From contig JAGQME010000003.1 of assembly GCA_020428795.1 (NCBI GenBank), positions 30,438 through 94,437 on the forward strand: DNA of 64,000 bases, given 5' to 3'. The DNA comes from Candidatus Kaiserbacteria bacterium (GTDB lineage: Bacteria > Patescibacteriota > Minisyncoccia > Phycocordibacterales > UBA918). The notes under the pieces are model-generated. The model was given only the letters and a program-made list of their open reading frames with translations. It ran no database searches and was not told the DNA's origin. Numbering within the stretch: the first letter of the stretch is position 1; each line of letters begins with the position of its first letter. The position numbers were made by a program, and so were the translations under genes. Shown here in pieces: positions 9,106-54,363 of this stretch.

Positions 9106-9124
9106 TTTGGTATCGAGGGGAAAA

Positions 9125-9165
9125 ACAAGAGGCGGATCACTTACGTGATCCGCCTCTTGTTTTTA
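9125..9165. terminator. Bidirectional terminator hairpin between the convergent helicase-nuclease and dsbA-like genes
   Basis: Perfect 16-bp stem acaagaggcggatcac-ttac-gtgatccgcctcttgt, flanked by an A-run on the 5' side and a T-run on the 3' side. Confidence 0.75.
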
Positions 9166-17190: not shown

Positions 17191-17223
17191 TTTAATAGTA
17201 TAAGAAGTCCTCTGTGGTGTTTT

Positions 17224-17267
17224 AACTAAAACAAAGCGCTCCCTTCGGGAGCGCTTTGTTTTAGTTA
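17224..17267. terminator. Bidirectional terminator hairpin between fba and the convergent small gene
   Basis: aactaaaacaaagcgctccc-ttcg-ggagcgctttgttttagtt. Confidence 0.75.
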
Positions 17268-17270
17268 TTA

Positions 17271-17489
17271 CTATTTCTTTTGTTTATAGACAGTATGTGT
17301 CTTAGCGATTGGGTTATATTTTTTGGCCTCGTATTTCTTGCTAGGGTCTTTTTTGTTCTTATTATTGTACGTACTGTAGTAGGTATGATTTTTACCCACG
17401 CCATTTTTGTCGCCCTGAGTTACCATTTTTATAAGTCTTTCTTGTGACATAGTGGTGCTGATTCTAACAGAACAGTCTATTTTAGTCAA
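17271..17489 (-). CDS. Small basic protein, hypothetical
   Basis: 72-aa K/Y/N-rich ORF ending right at the terminator hairpin. No homology recognised. Confidence 0.3.
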   Translation of the reverse strand: MTKIDCSVRISTTMSQERLIKMVTQGDKNGVGKNHTYYSTYNNKNKKDPSKKYEAKKYNPIAKTHTVYKQKK

Positions 17490-40285: not shown

Positions 40286-41185
40286 TTACTTCCAAAATTC
40301 AATAATAAAAACCCCAAAAGTAATTAAAATAATTGCCATCCATTGGGTTGGTGAAATTTGGTTCCGTTCATGGATGGGGAATAGAAAGAAAATAATAAGT
40401 AAGAAAATACTCTGTACACCACCTAAAGCAGTTACATAGGCTCCTAAGGGAGCCAGTGAGATAGCTAGCATTACAAAAAGGAAAGAAATTTGAGATATAG
40501 TCTCGTTTAATAAACTAAAACCGAGAAAGTTGCCTCCCTGATTCTTTACTCGATATAAGAATCCATCACGATACGGTTTAATTAGACTGACCAAAAATAA
40601 TCCAATTACACCAATCCCTACGTATTGATAAAAGAATACCGTCAGTACGCTCGTTTCTGCAGAAGCCAATCTAACCAAGAAAAGTGATACTGACCACATT
40701 AGTGAAACCGGCAACATGATTAATAGAAGTTTGGTGGGAACTTTCCATCTAAAAGTATCAGAATCAAGTATGTAAGCACCCAAAACCAACACCCCAATTC
40801 CTAACAAAGCAGTAAAGGTAACATGAGCACCAAATAATAATTCAATAACCAATAGCCAGATACTGCTCAAACCAAATAGGGGTACAACCTGATGGGCTGG
40901 GTAGATAAGGAATAAATAGAAGTAGGCAGTCCATAAAATAACCATAGGTACGGCAGAAGCTAAGGCCAGATAGAGTGAGTGGTTGCTTATACTTAAGTCA
41001 CTAATATATAAACCAAGGCTAGCAATAGTCACAACACTAAGTAGTGTAGAAATAATGATCACACCCCCGATTCTTTTATGGGGACTTTCTTGGTCGGTAA
41101 CTTTGTTGTTTGACGTTAAATACTCGTCAATATAATTGACGAGGGCCATGGTGAAACAGTGAATAATTGTATAGACAAACCACAT
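40286..41185 (-). CDS. DMT-superfamily (EamA-like) membrane transporter, putative
   Basis: About 10 TM helices in two 5-TM halves. Confidence 0.45.
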   Translation of the reverse strand: MWFVYTIIHCFTMALVNYIDEYLTSNNKVTDQESPHKRIGGVIIISTLLSVVTIASLGLYISDLSISNHSLYLALASAVPMVILWTAYFYLFLIYPAHQVVPLFGLSSIWLLVIELLFGAHVTFTALLGIGVLVLGAYILDSDTFRWKVPTKLLLIMLPVSLMWSVSLFLVRLASAETSVLTVFFYQYVGIGVIGLFLVSLIKPYRDGFLYRVKNQGGNFLGFSLLNETISQISFLFVMLAISLAPLGAYVTALGGVQSIFLLIIFFLFPIHERNQISPTQWMAIILITFGVFIIEFWK

Positions 41186-41255
41186 GTAATTATTAAATTA
41201 TAACAGAAGTAAGCATCTATATAATAGAAACTTCGATTATTCTAATTTATCATAC

Positions 41256-41299
41256 AAAATGGTACGTACATAAGTACGTACTTATGTACGTACCATTTT
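41256..41299. repeat. 44-bp perfect palindrome rich in GTAC cores
   Basis: aaaatggtacgtacataagtac|gtacttatgtacgtaccatttt, an exact dyad symmetry with no spacer. Confidence 0.85.
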
Positions 41300-41362: not shown

Positions 41363-41488
41363 TTTTACATACTATGCAGATATTATGCTAATAATTTTTT
41401 TAAGACGGTCCGGTTTAAAATTTGGGAACTTTTTTATTCTCTTAAGAGACTTTTTGAATCTACTGCTATAGTGAACTGTGTATTTCAT
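41363..41488 (-). pseudogene. Truncated yafQ/relE-family toxin remnant (41 codons, then a stop and unrelated sequence)
   Basis: Translation MKYTVHYSSRFKKSLKRIKKFPNFKPDRLKKIISIISA* aligns with the N-terminal half of YafQ-type toxins. The ATG lies 2 nt after the antitoxin stop. All three frames carry stops beyond this point. Confidence 0.5.
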
Positions 41489-41490
41489 AA

Positions 41491-41763
41491 CTACAGCTCT
41501 AGGTCGGCAAAGAGTTCGTCTAGGTTATGGTAACCTTTGGAACGCTTTGCTTTCTTAACGTCAGAAACTAGGGCCTTTTCTTGTGCAGGAGTGAAGCCAT
41601 TTTCAGTTTTTAAATCCAAAGGTACACCTTTTCGGTTTATTACATTTATTAAAAATAATTTAATGGCACTAGACATATCTAAACCAACTCCATCGAGTAT
41701 TTTTTTGGCATTCTTCTTGGTCTTAGAGTCAATTCGTATTTGTATAGTATCTTGATAATTCAT
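41491..41763 (-). CDS. DinJ/RelB-family type II antitoxin (ribbon-helix-helix)
   Basis: IQIRIDSKTKKNAKKILDGVGLDMSSAIKLFLINV matches the DinJ N-terminal RHH. Size is 90 aa. Confidence 0.75.
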   Translation of the reverse strand: MNYQDTIQIRIDSKTKKNAKKILDGVGLDMSSAIKLFLINVINRKGVPLDLKTENGFTPAQEKALVSDVKKAKRSKGYHNLDELFADLEL

Positions 41764-41812
41764 AATAGGAGTTTATAATTTTGTAATGACAATGTAAATA
41801 CATTTTATGTTT

Positions 41813-41827
41813 CGGCGGTAGGATTCG
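41813..41827 (-). repeat. 15-bp exact direct copy of the tRNA-Asn 3' region (T-loop/acceptor); att-like scar
   Basis: cggcggtaggattcg recurs at 42840..42854 inside the tRNA, in the same orientation, about 1.03 kb away. Confidence 0.5.
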
Positions 41828-41919: not shown

Positions 41920-42270
41920 CTAATTTTCTTTATACCAATACACTGGAGTCCCTGATTCTCCATATTGCTCAATCACGTCATCAAGTGGGTCCAGCCATTC
42001 TTCACTGCAACCACGTTCTGTAACCCAAGCGTTCCAGGTATCCATCTGAATATTTACATCAGATTGCGGATATTTGGTTAGATACTCATAAGACCATGCA
42101 TTCCAAAAGTCATTGAAGTTACCTTCAGTCGGGCATTGTAAAAATTTAGTGTCACTATCATCTAGATTAGATGTGGCAAGATATAAATCAATAAATAAGA
42201 TGTCATAAACAACAAGACCTGCCATAAACGCACCTATGACTATCATTATGAATTTTAGTTTTCTACCCAT
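41920..42270 (-). CDS. Hypothetical exported/membrane-anchored protein (Trp-rich)
   Basis: N-terminal TM helix. Lies inside the att-like bounded segment. Confidence 0.35.
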   Translation of the reverse strand: MGRKLKFIMIVIGAFMAGLVVYDILFIDLYLATSNLDDSDTKFLQCPTEGNFNDFWNAWSYEYLTKYPQSDVNIQMDTWNAWVTERGCSEEWLDPLDDVIEQYGESGTPVYWYKEN

Positions 42271-42662
42271 GCTTTACAACCCTCATTAAATGATTTTGAT
42301 GTATTTGGACACTCACTTTTCCACATAATATTATTTTTCATAGCCCAATTGTAGCCCGCTTCATGACCACTGCAATCTTTTGTGCAATTATACCCATGGA
42401 AATATTGGGGCCTGTTTTCTATTCTTTCTTTCAAATCTTTGTCAGTCACTCGTTCGTCTGTGGGAATAGAAATATAATTTAGAAAGCCAAAAAAGAATCC
42501 AAAGGCAATAATCGGCCCAAGCCCAAATAATATAAGCTTAGGGAATGTGTCGATTTCCAATCGTTTCTCTTTTTCCTGACGCTCTCTAGATGCTTGGAGC
42601 ATACGTTTACGGAATTCCTCTTTAGTTAGTTTTTCGGTCATAAAATACAAAAAGCCCACCAC
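42255..42662 (-). CDS. Hypothetical protein with a central TM helix and a Cys-rich C-terminal region
   Basis: 135-aa ORF overlapping the downstream ORF by 16 nt. Lies inside the att-like bounded segment. Confidence 0.35.
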   Translation of the reverse strand: MVGFLYFMTEKLTKEEFRKRMLQASRERQEKEKRLEIDTFPKLILFGLGPIIAFGFFFGFLNYISIPTDERVTDKDLKERIENRPQYFHGYNCTKDCSGHEAGYNWAMKNNIMWKSECPNTSKSFNEGCKAWVEN

Positions 42663-42833: not shown

Positions 42834-42908
42834 TGGCTCCGGCGGTAGGATTCGAACCTACGACCAATGCGTTAACAGCGCACTGCTCTACCGCTGAGCT
42901 ACGCCGGA
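42834..42908 (-). tRNA. tRNA-Asn (anticodon GTT), 75 nt with encoded CCA
   Basis: Manual fold gives acceptor TCCGGCG/CGCCGGA, D-arm GCTC-AGCGGTA-GAGC, anticodon arm GTGCG-CTGTTAA-CGCAT, T-arm GTAGG-TTCGAAT-CCTAC, discriminator G, CCA. Confidence 0.9.
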
Positions 42909-48894: not shown

Positions 48895-50397
48895 CTAGAA
48901 TTCTTCTAAATAGCTAACCTTGGCTCCCAAACTATTAAGTCTCTCGACCAATTTTTCATAACCACGATTGATGCTATAGATGTTGCGCAAAACACTTTGA
49001 CCCTTGGCCCCTAGCATGCCAATCAATAAGATGGTGGCTGGTCTAAGGGCTGGTGGACAGATGAGCTCGGCCGGTTTTAGGGTGGTTGGTCCATTTATAT
49101 AAATGCGGTGTGGATCAGCCAGTACGGTGTCAGCTCCTAATTTATCTAGCTCAGTAAAGTAGATAGCACGTTTTTCGTAGACCCAGTCGTGTATTAGGGT
49201 TTGACCAACCGCTTGGGTAGCGATAACGGCGAAGAAGGGAAGGTTGTCTATGTTTAGACCCGGATAAGGTCTGGCGTATACTTTTTCGTGCAAAGATACC
49301 AACTTCGAAGGTTTGGTGGTTATGTCTACCAAACGAGTTAAGCCATTATGGCTTAGGTAAGGCTTTGATTTGGTGTACTTGAAGCCCATCTTTTCTAACT
49401 TTAGTAATTCCAGTTCTAGAAAATCTATTGGACAGCGAGTGATTTTAATACTCGATTTTGTCACGATAGCGGCCGATAGGAAAAACATTGTATCGGTAGG
49501 ATCTTCGCTTAGGGTGTATTCGATTGGTGAATTTATCTTAGTCACGCCGGTTACTCTCAAGGTGGTGGTTCCAACTCCTTCAATCTTTACACCGCAAGTT
49601 TTTAGAAAAGCACAAATTTCTTGCACCATGTAGTTGGCTGAAGCATATTTGATAACAGTAGTGGTCGGAGTTAAAGCGGCTGCAAATAGAGCGTTTTCAG
49701 TAACGGTGTCACCTGATTCGTAGAGAATTATCTCCTTTGGTTCAGCTGGTTTAACTTTTACCTCAAAGTGTTCATTGGTGGTTTTTATATTGACACCATA
49801 ATGTTCTAGGGCGTAAAGGTGAGGTTGGACGGTCCGGCTTCCGAGTTTGCAACCACCGGACTGAGGTAGGGAGAAGGCTTTTAGTTTGTGGATTAAAGGG
49901 CCGATAAACATGACAATGCTACGGGTACGTTTGGCCGATTCCACATCTATTTTGTCCAAGTTTAATTTTTGGGGTGGGGTGATATAAAGGTCACTGTCTT
50001 TCCATTCAACTTTAACCCCAATACTTTCCAAAACTTCAATAATACGATGTACTTCTTCGATACGGGGTATGTTCCTTAGCTTCGTGGTACCGCTGTTTAA
50101 TAGGGAGGCGCATAGCAGGCCAACCGCACCGTTTTTTGAGGTGTTGGTTTCTATAGTGCCGGTTAACTTCAGGCCGCCATCAATAGATATATTTACCGAG
50201 CCAGGTTGGGCTGAAACAATGTTTCGTTTCAAAGCAACACTGATTTTTCTTAATAAATCGGTCGATACATTTTGTTTACCGGATTCAATTCTAGCCACAG
50301 CGCTTTGGGTGGTAGAAATCTTTGCGGCTAAATCTTTCTGAGTTAGTCCAGTAGCTTCTCTTAAGTGGGCAATTCTTACTCCAATATTTTCATTCAT
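48895..50397 (-). CDS. murA: UDP-N-acetylglucosamine 1-carboxyvinyltransferase (MurA; EPT fold) with an N-terminal XRE-type HTH domain fusion
   Basis: N-terminal HTH GLTQKDLAAKISTTQSAVARIESG. This is followed by EPT-family blocks (TNTSKNGAVGLLCASLL, two-domain inside-out alpha/beta repeats) through the C-terminus. Start taken at MNENIG. Confidence 0.75.
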   Translation of the reverse strand: MNENIGVRIAHLREATGLTQKDLAAKISTTQSAVARIESGKQNVSTDLLRKISVALKRNIVSAQPGSVNISIDGGLKLTGTIETNTSKNGAVGLLCASLLNSGTTKLRNIPRIEEVHRIIEVLESIGVKVEWKDSDLYITPPQKLNLDKIDVESAKRTRSIVMFIGPLIHKLKAFSLPQSGGCKLGSRTVQPHLYALEHYGVNIKTTNEHFEVKVKPAEPKEIILYESGDTVTENALFAAALTPTTTVIKYASANYMVQEICAFLKTCGVKIEGVGTTTLRVTGVTKINSPIEYTLSEDPTDTMFFLSAAIVTKSSIKITRCPIDFLELELLKLEKMGFKYTKSKPYLSHNGLTRLVDITTKPSKLVSLHEKVYARPYPGLNIDNLPFFAVIATQAVGQTLIHDWVYEKRAIYFTELDKLGADTVLADPHRIYINGPTTLKPAELICPPALRPATILLIGMLGAKGQSVLRNIYSINRGYEKLVERLNSLGAKVSYLEEF

Positions 50398-50507
50398 ACG
50401 ACATGAGTATAGCATATTTGCTATACTATAATAATAATTTTTGGGGAAAGTTGATTTGTCATATATAAGACTTGGCATTTTCTTAAAAACAGCTACTATA
50501 CATATTC

Positions 50508-51588: not shown

Positions 51589-54363
51589 ATGAACGAATAC
51601 GCTCCGCAAAAATTCGCCTCACCAGAGGAGGAGATTACTTTTTTACGTAACCAGATCGCATCCAAAGAGCGAGAGCTACTGGAGCGTAGTCCTGAAGCTG
51701 ACCGAACTGATCTAGAGTCGATAGCTAAACATGAGCTACTTGAATACGGTACTTTCACTCCAAATTCTGTATTAGATAAGGCTCATCAATTACCTGACAA
51801 AGAGGTGACAGAGTCAGTCATAAAGGTCGAAACCACCCTAGAACCAATCGAAGAAATCATACAGATCGCCAAAGAAAAAGGCATTCATAACGCCTTAACA
51901 GTTTTAGAAAAAACCAAGAATGCTTTCACTACCGATGAAGTACATCGTCGGTTAATCGAGTTGATAAAATCTGACGTTGCTATCCAGAATTTAAAAGAAG
52001 GTGTACCACCGTGGCAGATACTTCATATGACTTTATTTGAGGTTTCCTTGCCAGAAATCTCTGAACATCACGGCCAAGCGTATCAGTTGAGCGAGATTAT
52101 TAGCATGATGGAGCAGTTCTTTTCGGGTATGCAAAACGTCGGTCAATATGAAAAGAATCTGCATTATGTAATCGAAATAGCTGTCGCTGATAAAAGTGAC
52201 GAGATTGTTTTTTATGTAGCGGTACCGACCAACTACGTAGATTTGTTCCAAAAACAGATTTTGTCACTATATCCACACGCTGAATTAACCGAACAGGTCC
52301 ACGACTACAATATCTTTGTGGAGGGGGGAGAGTCGATAGTGGCTAGAGCTGAATTAAAGAAACATCATGTGTATCCGATTGCTCAAAAGGAGTCGTTTGA
52401 GTCTGATCCTTTGTCAGTTATATTAAATGCTTTTTCGAAGATTGAGAGGGAGGGCGGCGGAGCCGCCCTCCAATTTGTGATCAAAAGAGCACCTCAAAAA
52501 TACACTTCAGTCTACGAAGGCATAATCAAAAGAGTTCGAGACGGAGTAAAACCAAGCGAGGCAATTGCTAGAAGCTCGCTTCGTGGTGAAATATTTTCAA
52601 GTTTTAAGGAGATCGCTTTTTCCGGTACCAAAAAGAAAGACTACAGTGCTTTGCCGACTCATGACCACGTTGATCAAGATGCTCTGGAGTTATTTAACGA
52701 AAAACTAAAGTTTCCGGTGGCTGATGTAAATATAAGGATTGCTGTATCCAGTCGAAGTGAAGCTCGGTCTAAGCAAATACTCTCTGAAGTGGAGTCAGCT
52801 TTTAATCAGTTTGAGAGAACGCAGGGTAATCGTTTTGTTTTTAAAACTCTAAAAGGCTCCGCTTTAACTCAAGCCATCAAAGCTTTTTCTTTTCGAGAAT
52901 TTGTGGCTTCAACCACTTTACCGTTAACTTTTCGAGAATTAGCCACTGTCATTCATTTTCCAGGGGCTGGTATAAACACCTCGCCACAGTTTAAACAATC
53001 AAGAGCCAAAACCGCCGCCGCTCCGGTTGATATGCCTAGTTCCGGCACCTTACTTGGTATAAATTCTCATCGAAGTATTCAGAAAGAGATTTATATCACC
53101 GAAGAGGATCGTATGCGACACTTTTATGTGATTGGACAGACCGGTACCGGTAAGACGACTCTAATGAAAAATATGTTGGTTCAGGATATTCAGGCTGGAC
53201 ATGGTGTTTGCTTTATCGATCCACACGGTACCGATATTGAGGACGTCCTCTCAGCGGTTCCGCGTGAGCGAGAGCAAGACATTATTTATTTTGATCCGTC
53301 TCGTACTGACCAAGTGGTAGGTCTAAACATGCTGGAGTACGACATCAATAAACCCGAACAAAAAACCTTTGTAGTAAATGAGCTATTTTCAATTTTCCAA
53401 AAACTGTACGGTGCCAATCCAGAAAGCATGGGTCCGATGTTTGAACAGTATTTCCGAAATGCCACTTTGTTGGTGATGGAGGACCCTGAGAGTGGTAATA
53501 CTTTGATGGATATTAGTCGAGTGATGGCCGACGCTAAGTATCGTCGTATGAAACTAGAAAAAGCGACCAATCCAGTCGTTACTCAATTCTGGCGAGAGAT
53601 TGCTACCAAAGCCGGTGGGGAAGCTTCGCTTGAAAATATCGTGCCTTACATCGTTTCAAAATTCGATGTATTTACCGCCAACGATTATATGCGACCAATT
53701 ATCGGCCAACAGAAATCGGCTTTTAATTTCCGTCATATTATGGATGAGAAGAAGATATTGTTGGTAAATCTATCCAAAGGTCGCCTCGGTGAGATTAATG
53801 CCAATCTGATCGGTATGATTATTGTCGGGAAGATACTGATGGCCGCTCTTTCAAGAGTGGATGATCCAACCAAGGGCTTTCCGCCATTTTTCTTGCATAT
53901 GGATGAGTTTCAAAATGTCTCTACCGATTCTATTTCCGCTATTCTTTCAGAAGCTCGTAAGTATAAACTTGGTCTAACCATCGCTCATCAGTTTATCGCT
54001 CAGTTGGATGAAAAGATTAAAGATGCGGTGTTTGGTAACGTGGGTTCTATGGTGGCTTTTAGAGTGGGTCCGGAAGATTCACAATTTCTAGAACAACAGT
54101 TTTCTCCAACTTTCACCGCCAACGACTTAATGAACATCCCTAATCGAAATGCCTATGTTAGAGCGCTGGCCAATGGTTCACCAACTAAACCGTTTAGTAT
54201 GTCAACCATCGCCCCAATGGAAACCGACTTGAATCGAGTTCAGTCACTTATTTTGGCTAGCAATCAAAGAAATGGTCGGCCAAGGGAAGAAGTTGAAGCC
54301 GAGATTTCTGCCCGTTATCAAAAACCAACCCTACCAGAATCTAATCCGTTTGCTAAGATATAG
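51589..54363 (+). CDS. Large FtsK/HerA/VirB4-clade P-loop ATPase (AAA_10/TraC-like C-terminal half; N-terminal ~500 aa of unknown function)
   Basis: Walker A IGQTGTGKTTLMKNM, followed ~25 aa later by CFIDPHGTD. Walker B FFLHMDEFQN. Sensor region ARKYKLGLTIAHQFIAQ. No TM helix. Confidence 0.65.
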   Translation: MNEYAPQKFASPEEEITFLRNQIASKERELLERSPEADRTDLESIAKHELLEYGTFTPNSVLDKAHQLPDKEVTESVIKVETTLEPIEEIIQIAKEKGIHNALTVLEKTKNAFTTDEVHRRLIELIKSDVAIQNLKEGVPPWQILHMTLFEVSLPEISEHHGQAYQLSEIISMMEQFFSGMQNVGQYEKNLHYVIEIAVADKSDEIVFYVAVPTNYVDLFQKQILSLYPHAELTEQVHDYNIFVEGGESIVARAELKKHHVYPIAQKESFESDPLSVILNAFSKIEREGGGAALQFVIKRAPQKYTSVYEGIIKRVRDGVKPSEAIARSSLRGEIFSSFKEIAFSGTKKKDYSALPTHDHVDQDALELFNEKLKFPVADVNIRIAVSSRSEARSKQILSEVESAFNQFERTQGNRFVFKTLKGSALTQAIKAFSFREFVASTTLPLTFRELATVIHFPGAGINTSPQFKQSRAKTAAAPVDMPSSGTLLGINSHRSIQKEIYITEEDRMRHFYVIGQTGTGKTTLMKNMLVQDIQAGHGVCFIDPHGTDIEDVLSAVPREREQDIIYFDPSRTDQVVGLNMLEYDINKPEQKTFVVNELFSIFQKLYGANPESMGPMFEQYFRNATLLVMEDPESGNTLMDISRVMADAKYRRMKLEKATNPVVTQFWREIATKAGGEASLENIVPYIVSKFDVFTANDYMRPIIGQQKSAFNFRHIMDEKKILLVNLSKGRLGEINANLIGMIIVGKILMAALSRVDDPTKGFPPFFLHMDEFQNVSTDSISAILSEARKYKLGLTIAHQFIAQLDEKIKDAVFGNVGSMVAFRVGPEDSQFLEQQFSPTFTANDLMNIPNRNAYVRALANGSPTKPFSMSTIAPMETDLNRVQSLILASNQRNGRPREEVEAEISARYQKPTLPESNPFAKI

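Follow-up and report, generated by a model that had tools for sequence, protein, structure and literature searches.

The locus examined in this study raises the question of what a long and flawless palindrome is doing between the remains of a toxin-antitoxin cassette and a transporter gene in a metagenome-assembled genome (MAG) of Candidatus Kaiserbacteria, a member of the Candidate Phyla Radiation (CPR). The window, by which we mean the whole 64-kb stretch of DNA that was analysed (positions 1-64000), had been given an initial annotation that described a 44-bp spacer-less perfect palindrome built of GTAC cores. Several roles had been suggested for it, among them an operator for an antitoxin-type regulator, a cruciform-forming element, and a recombination or replication site of a putative island. 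We have considered these suggestions, together with other explanations, in the light of the locus itself, of the other hairpins in the window and of similar elements in other genomes.

Sequence, folding and position of the palindrome

The description of the palindrome proved accurate. An inverted-repeat search returned two arms of 22 nt each, 41256-41277 (AAAATGGTACGTACATAAGTAC) and 41278-41299 (GTACTTATGTACGTACCATTTT), which are 100% complementary with 0 nt between them and together form a palindrome (41256-41299, no strand) that is the longest perfect inverted repeat within the 64-kb window. It contains three copies of the 8-bp palindrome GTACGTAC, at 41262-41269, 41274-41281 and 41286-41293, with a centre-to-centre spacing of 12 bp. 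The first box is followed by the spacer ATAA (41270-41273), and the second, which holds the dyad centre and the hairpin apex, by the spacer TTAT (41282-41285); the two spacers are reverse complements of each other, and the outer caps beyond the first and last boxes are AAAATG and CATTTT. When the window was searched with a 17-nt half-site, allowing up to 3 mismatches, four matches were obtained where 0.13 would be expected by chance, all of them within the 44-mer, and no second copy or half-site was found elsewhere in the 64 kb at this threshold. A 19-of-24 match at 17355-17386 was taken as coincidence, as it lies inside a minus-strand ORF for a lysine-rich protein of 59 aa.

The predicted folding of the 44-mer is stable and supports a hairpin- or cruciform-forming element. 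The 96-nt RNA that includes the flanks has a folding energy of -33.9 kcal/mol (z = -6.7) and the 64-nt single-stranded DNA one of -19.9 kcal/mol (z = -8.6), with -26.9 kcal/mol for the 44-mer alone. In RNA or single-stranded DNA, the fold is a 20-bp stem closed by an ACGU or ACGT tetraloop. A search of RNA families with the 44-mer returned only eukaryotic miRNA-precursor models far below threshold, as would be the case for a generic hairpin.

Perfect palindromes of this kind commonly break short-read assemblies. One contig (L002) starts within the palindrome and reads across its centre, and two others (L004 and L005) end at its edge. The possibility that the palindrome is a fold-back artefact of assembly was rejected, because its symmetry ends at 22 nt, its flanks are unique on both sides, and an identical 44-mer with the same unique flanks is present in an independent scaffold from another sample (L001), which is 99.8% identical over 6.8 kb. 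Four short-read contigs from different samples (L003, L006, L007, and L009) end within a few bases of each other, at about 41405-41412 of the window, inside the toxin remnant (...AAATTTTAAACCGGAC), which hints at a population variant or a drop in coverage.

The possibility that GTAC is a word avoided because of restriction was also rejected, since its observed/expected ratio in the window is 0.86. A separate observation concerns CGCG, which is nearly absent from the window (4 observed versus 57 expected, a ratio of 0.07), with other 4-bp palindromes at 0.7 to 1.1. Such scarcity points to strong restriction pressure specific to CGCG, or else to biased mutation, in the Kaiserbacteria genome.

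The position given for the palindrome was likewise confirmed: it lies between a YafQ-type toxin remnant and the start of an EamA/DMT gene, in the part of the neighbourhood with the lowest GC content. Read along the minus strand, tRNA-Asn (42908-42834) comes first, followed by two hypothetical ORFs, relB/dinJ, the toxin stump, the palindrome, and the DMT gene. The relB/dinJ antitoxin gene (41491-41763, minus strand; 90 aa), identified by Pfam RelB (E = 1.3e-12) and by its NCBI protein name, forms the transcription unit leading into the palindrome. The YafQ/RelE-type toxin remnant (41372-41488, minus strand) consists of codons 1-38 followed by a TAG stop, and its translation, MKYTVHYSSRFKKSLKRIKKFPNFKPDRLKKIISIISA, aligns with residues 1-38 of the intact YafQ-type toxins of 93-94 aa that are encoded by related cassettes. 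When the intact toxins from L152-L156 were compared with the window by tblastn, only residues 1-37 or 1-38 matched, and the remaining 55 residues (39-93) were not found in any frame at the locus. An intact toxin gene would extend to about 41207, and therefore the palindrome sits in former toxin coding space. Because the 44-mer occupies the place of the missing toxin codons, it must have arrived with or after the deletion and cannot have been the original terminator of the cassette. A search with the 40-aa toxin remnant, aimed at the state of the locus before the deletion, gave no match, and no related element was found downstream of the intact relB-yafQ cassettes, whose RelB proteins are 66-78% identical.

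The EamA/DMT transporter gene (40286-41185, minus strand; Pfam EamA) encodes a protein 100% identical to the Candidatus Kaiserbacteria protein KC845_01420, which identifies the window as DNA of the CPR/Patescibacteria. In two related loci (L110 and L111), the sequence immediately before the called start also codes for the N-terminus of this protein, MWFVYTIIHCF. An extended -10 motif, TGTTATAAT, can be read from the sequence at 41197-41205 (minus strand), 11 nt before the DMT start codon and about 50 nt downstream of the 44-mer, and no Shine-Dalgarno sequence is present before this start codon. These features suggest a separate, near-leaderless DMT transcript, which is predicted to begin about 65 nt downstream of the edge of the palindrome.

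Within about 12 kb on each side, the neighbouring genes are of a housekeeping kind (pentose-phosphate enzymes, UDG, Fpg, HPF, Fmt, Def, PriA, MreB, and an Na+/H+ exchanger). Elsewhere in the window, the minus-strand ORF at 48895-50478 has an unusual architecture in which an N-terminal HTH_3 (XRE-type) domain is fused to an EPSP_synthase/MurA-type domain, and the ORF at 51589-54363 (plus strand), which adjoins mreB, encodes a 924-aa protein with weak matches to VirD4/TraG-type coupling proteins and HerA-type ATPases.

Operator and recombination-site readings

If the palindrome were an operator of the RelB/DinJ antitoxin, as had been proposed, it would be expected to lie in the promoter of relB and to share its sequence with the operators of related cassettes, and this was not what we observed. 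The promoter of relB has an operator-like palindrome of its own, TGTATTTACATTGTCATTACA (41782-41802, minus strand), which overlaps the TTGACA -35 box of relB and occurs as the same motif in related cassettes. The palindrome TGTATTGACA-N-TGTCAATACA is present upstream of relB in the window and in five related relB-yafQ cassettes (L150, L152, L153, L154, and L156), where the motif reads TGTATTGACAaTGTCAaTACA, and the RelB proteins of the six cassettes that carry it are 66-78% identical. This palindrome is a clean candidate for the autoregulatory RelB/DinJ operator of this CPR cassette family. The 44-mer bears no resemblance to it and lies downstream of the cassette, and no GTACGTAC element was found beside any intact related relB-yafQ cassette. 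An operator of the DMT gene was also rejected, because five orthologous loci (67-77% identity) have neither the palindrome nor GTACGTAC upstream and no gene order shared with the window. Furthermore, relative to the predicted DMT start site, the 44-mer extends over about -66 to -109, beyond the zone in which repressors usually act.

The vicinity of the tRNA-Asn gene brings in a different explanation, in which the palindrome is a tyrosine-recombinase core, with arms ...ACATAA and TTATGT... around an 8-bp overlap, GTACGTAC, that marks the boundary of a small variable patch beside the tRNA. CATAA-GTACGTAC-TTATG does formally resemble the cores of dif, lox, and att sites. The variable locus is about 1.5 kb from tRNA-Asn, whose 3' end recurs at 41813-41827, and the homology between copies of the element ends close to it in a Saccharibacteria MAG and in the L128/L132 pair that are described below. 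We nevertheless consider such a site very improbable, as there is no partner site in the window, no integrase, Xer, resolvase, or transposase gene within about 12 kb, and no GC-skew switch; in addition, a symmetric overlap region would give no directionality, and the att-like tRNA repeat differs from the palindrome in sequence. The broader suggestion of a recombination or replication site of an island found no support either. A scan of the 28 neighbouring ORFs revealed no recombinase, transposase, protelomerase, or GntR/PadR regulator within about 12 kb, and the palindrome has no second copy in the window. Integron attC, protelomerase telRL, and dif sites were rejected as well, since this locus has neither R-box nor GTTRRRY motifs, encodes no integrase or protelomerase, and shows no skew switch.

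The repeat of the tRNA gene deserves a description of its own. The last 15 nt of the T-arm and acceptor stem of tRNA-Asn (CGAATCCTACCGCCG; 42840-42854, minus strand) are repeated exactly at 41813-41827, just upstream of relB, and this att-like direct repeat brackets about 1 kb with the two hypothetical ORFs (42255-42662 and 41920-42270). The related relB-yafQ cassettes in L150, L153, and L154 are flanked by tRNA T-loop-like motifs, GTTCGAAC or AGTTCG. It may be that the relB-yafQ cassette travels on small tRNA-targeting elements, as these flanking sequences suggest.

Hairpins at the ends of genes in the window

The palindrome had been thought too long and too perfect to be a terminator, and this argument is contradicted by the window itself. 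It contains nine other perfect hairpins of 30-45 nt, each of them 2-33 nt past a stop codon of one or both strands. Their stems measure 14-21 bp, their loops 2-4 nt, and their folding energies are -12 to -36 kcal/mol. Two of them, at 9121-9164 and 17223-17267, are 44 and 45 nt long, and the energy of the 44-mer alone is inside the range of the nine. Several lie between convergent genes, and most have complementary A-rich and T-rich outer ends like the AAAA...TTTT of the 44-mer, which lengthens the perfect palindromes. The same style of long perfect terminator was found at the loci of relatives.

One of these hairpins is accompanied by an unlisted minus-strand ORF at 17271-17450, which encodes the 59-aa lysine-rich protein (MSQERLIKMVTQGDKNGVGKNHTYYSTYNNKNKK...) and ends 4 nt before the hairpin at 17223-17267; this hairpin is therefore a terminator common to convergent genes. 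The only other GTACGTAC of the window lies within this ORF, at 17367.

The reading that we prefer is that the 44-mer is a terminator or insulator hairpin of a REP-like three-box GTACGTAC class in CPR, which we find plausible while stopping just short of calling it probable. In this class, the boxes are spaced by 12 bp, the 4-nt spacers are complementary to each other, and the short flanks pair as well. The 44-mer lies between two co-directional transcription units, 73 nt past the stop codon of the toxin remnant and before the TGTTATAAT motif of the DMT gene, and a scan with a terminator consensus flagged it on both strands, as a slipped 8-bp version. From its structure, its position, and its likeness to the other hairpins of the window, together with the recurrence and covariation of the design in other genomes that are described below, we infer a role in terminating or stabilising transcripts. 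In such a mechanism, the minus-strand RNA that contains relB and the truncated toxin would fold into the 20-bp stem with the ACGU loop, followed by UUUUGUAUGAU. This structure would stop or pause RNA polymerase, or would at least make a stable 3' hairpin, and the EamA/DMT gene, with its own predicted extended -10 promoter, would be insulated from read-through out of the decaying toxin-antitoxin cassette. At the level of the locus, the palindrome appears to be neither a toxin-antitoxin operator nor an island junction, and most likely it closes the decaying relB-yafQ cassette before the transporter gene.

There are several observations that argue against a terminator. In comparison with the other hairpins of the window, the 44-mer has a low stem GC content (32%), a short T run, and a greater distance from the stop codon (73 nt). 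Its tail on the transcribed strand is CAUUUUGUAUGAU, with 4 consecutive T and 5 T in the next 12 nt, and a stem with 32% GC and a 4-T tract do not make a textbook intrinsic terminator. With bidirectional intrinsic (Rho-independent) terminators, the 44-mer has in common a perfect stem-loop where a transcription unit ends and complementary A-rich and T-rich outer ends; it differs from them in its GC-poor stem, its repeated GTAC units, the lack of a loop spacer, and the distance and T tract already mentioned. Furthermore, among the members of the three-box family found elsewhere, some have no T-tract, some lie in probable operons (in L026, 6 nt before the next start codon), and others closely precede genes that look like regulators (a PadR gene in the case of L124, and L140).

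The three-box design in other genomes

A scan of a genome collection, with one genome per species, for the pattern GTACGTAC-N4-GTACGTAC-N4-GTACGTAC gave matches of which, among those listed, many were artefact contigs of (GTAC)n or tandem 12-mers. A separate group consisted of discrete elements, 32 bp long and flanked by unrelated sequences, which were concentrated in CPR genomes. The Saccharibacteria MAG SRP263527_co1_153 has at least 20 copies with AYRT spacers, the Paceibacteria genome CJ05B_2.98 at least three copies with TTWG/CWAA spacers, and the Saccharibacteria MAG binchicken_co173_41 and the Parcubacteria genome BM705 at least two copies each; further three-box elements were found in Paceibacterota and Falkowbacteria MAGs. 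The spacer variant is specific to each genome. Among the matches listed, CPR account for 7 of about 15 genomes with spaced matches. By a rough estimate, only a small fraction of the bases in the collection come from CPR.

Metagenomes were scanned with a 20-mer that spans two boxes and an ATAA spacer, without the requirement of a third box. Many of the matches were eukaryote-style microsatellites, and the others were discrete elements, of which about half (5 of about 10) had an exact third box although the pattern required only two. Two metagenome contigs, L117 and L124, contain a mirror-image perfect palindrome, CAG-GTACGTAC-TTAT-GTACGTAC-ATAA-GTACGTAC-CTG, and four others (L128, L132, L140, and L148) contain three-box variants. 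L128 and L132 represent the same locus in two diverged forms: the element and about 30 bp of flank are 100% identical, and the end of the adjacent gene is about 75% identical. A search of a viral collection gave one unrelated tandem-repeat match, and thus a phage origin was rejected.

Members of the family are flanked by housekeeping genes unrelated to one another (RuvB, MurI/Mur ligase, MetRS, TatD, and malic enzyme). A quarter of the elements (8 of 32) start 0-22 nt past the stop codon of a long ORF, and the Pfam-confirmed genes upstream of elements include those for MetRS, MurI, and malic enzyme. Nine elements, including the copy in the window, precede a start codon by no more than 150 nt, and the PadR gene in L124 is among these cases.

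When 24 elements from different genomes were aligned, the variable spacers and flanks were found to covary so that the dyad is kept: 63% of cells pair, compared with 40 +/- 2.5% in shuffled alignments (0 of 500 reached the observed value). In the spacer helix, pairing reaches 82% and every type of base pair occurs; the covariation score was 0.59, compared with 0.20 in shuffles, every slid control being lower. On the transcribed strand, as oriented by the upstream gene, there were 15 G.U wobbles and 11 A.C mismatches, which is no clear sign of RNA-specific selection. The GTACGTAC boxes themselves were fixed by the search patterns, and therefore their apparent invariance is partly an effect of the search.

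It had been suggested in the initial annotation that the absence of the sequence from all related loci, together with the lack of a protected footprint, would mark it as a fortuitous local duplication-inversion. The sequence is indeed absent from the orthologous DMT loci and from the related toxin-antitoxin cassettes, but the three-box design is also found in other CPR genomes, at loci unrelated to this one, and for this reason the 44-mer is not simply a fortuitous local inversion. A similar explanation is that the palindrome is a neutral by-product of the truncation of the toxin gene: a short inverted repeat rich in GTAC would have undergone fold-back or template-switch repair, and the product would persist because it is young. 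Such an origin would fit the location of the palindrome where toxin codons 39-93 should be, its absence from all intact related cassettes and DMT orthologues, and its flawless symmetry, as expected of a recent event; moreover, its only other carriers are 99.8% identical strains, so that conservation is not demonstrable at this locus. However, a random event is unlikely to repeat the three-box, 12-bp-phased design, which occurs with other spacers and flanks in several CPR genomes and metagenomes; this design still fixes 12 independent bases given the dyad symmetry. One such element is conserved across the diverged L128 and L132 loci, and neither arm of the 44-mer continues into recognisable toxin or DMT-flank sequence. 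Taken on both sides, the evidence makes a neutral scar distinctly unlikely in our judgement.

The recurrence of the boxes could also be explained if each 8-bp GTACGTAC were bound by a dimer, such as a regulator of the GntR, PadR, or ribbon-helix-helix type or a CPR nucleoid-associated protein, with the array modulating the DMT promoter or local DNA organisation. The experimentally defined operator of AraR, a GntR-family regulator, is ATTTGTACGTACAAAT, whose core is GTACGTAC (PMC1950556), and the YefM-YoeB operator consists of paired GTAC-centred palindromes (TGTACA) that are 12 bp apart, within 80 bp upstream of yefM (PMC1802561). The 44-mer thus shares an identical 8-bp core and multiple phased boxes with the AraR operator, and GTAC-centred boxes, 12-bp phasing, and an adjoining type II toxin-antitoxin cassette with the YefM-YoeB and Axe-Txe operators. 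Among the metagenome contigs, the mirror-image element of L124 is 68 nt upstream of a PadR-family gene and the L140 element is 17 nt upstream of a small ORF. In the Saccharibacteria MAG with the AYRT spacers, the boxes are constant and the spacers variable and not always complementary, and an exact third box recurs even where the search did not require one.

These similarities have to be weighed against the differences. The positions that flank the core differ from those of the AraR operator, the host belongs to CPR, and there are no GntR or sugar-utilisation genes near the 44-mer; indeed, no GntR, PadR, or YefM-type gene is present within about 12 kb. In contrast to the YefM-YoeB and Axe-Txe operators, the 44-mer has three boxes instead of two, contains neither a complete TGTACA nor an AraR-type flank, and is placed after the cassette, not in the 80 bp that precede the antitoxin start, and the antitoxin here is of the RelB/DinJ (ribbon-helix-helix) type rather than Phd/YefM and has its own conserved operator. 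The location outside the usual repressor zone of the DMT promoter and the lack of such a site in the DMT orthologues do not favour a role in DMT regulation, and the unrelated housekeeping genes around family members give no regulon signature. Furthermore, independent boxes would need no complementary spacers or flanks, yet the spacers and flanks covary, and the invariance of the boxes is partly a product of the search patterns. We therefore regard a protein-binding array as unlikely.

A wider proposal, which we put forward only tentatively and which is on balance doubtful, is that (GTACGTAC-N4)2-GTACGTAC defines an undescribed intergenic family enriched in CPR/Patescibacteria (Saccharibacteria, Paceibacteria/Kaiserbacteria, and Parcubacteria), of which the 44-mer would be one copy. 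In this proposal, a protein conserved in the CPR would recognise the invariant boxes; it could be a mobilising enzyme, a global regulator, or a factor that organises the nucleoid or chromosome. Each genome would keep a spacer variant of its own, and the family would be a functional counterpart of REP/BIME or of matS/SBS-type sites in the reduced CPR genomes. The 64-kb Kaiserbacteria window holds one copy, and none was found in 58 kb of Kaiserbacteria-like loci; with a single copy here, the 44-mer is assigned to the family for its shared design and not for being repeated in the Kaiserbacteria genome. We infer that copies in different genomes may have a common function or generating mechanism. 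Within the limited coverage of our search of the literature on CPR repeats or terminators, no counterpart was found, and it appears that the GTACGTAC-phased, CPR-enriched hairpin variant is undescribed, a hairpin after a gene being a known feature.

The terminator or insulator hairpin that we prefer may be compared with the REP/BIME elements (REP, repetitive extragenic palindrome) of proteobacteria; REP elements are known to act as RNA 3' hairpins or terminators. Both are short extragenic palindromes that are often located just past stop codons or within operons, and both occur in multiple copies with genome-specific variants, as is the case for the three-box elements of the Saccharibacteria MAG with at least 20 copies. 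In contrast, the 44-mer has no GTAG/GTGG head, no RAYT (Y1 transposase) is encoded among the 28 neighbouring ORFs, the element is single in the 64-kb window, and the copy numbers of three-box elements are in the tens and not the hundreds. REP elements also lack the internal three-box periodicity of 12 bp.

The CPR have tiny genomes in which very few repeats or regulatory DNA motifs have been described, and three-box GTACGTAC elements are found in several of their lineages. If the genome-wide pattern holds, these elements would provide a searchable motif for termination, RNA processing, or DNA-protein recognition in hard-to-study CPR. Perfect palindromes also matter for the quality of CPR MAGs, since they break or fold back short-read assemblies. 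For instance, the contig L042 of Candidatus Paceibacteria CJ05B_2.98 (CAXRCZ010000007.1, 126,716 bp) is an apparent fold-back assembly artefact, in which perfect inverted arms of at least 642 nt are centred at about 63,359, the midpoint of the contig, and the hinge of the fold-back is GTACGTAC-TTTG-GTACGTAC-CAAA-GTACGTAC. In the Saccharibacteria MAG SRP263527_co1_153, intergenic regions with GTACGTAC (L058, L061, L069, L077, and L100) also contain GTCATTCTCGACCCGATCGAGAATGAC-type palindromes and (TTACGAT)n runs, and these mixtures of repeats form mosaic clusters that are reminiscent of BIMEs.
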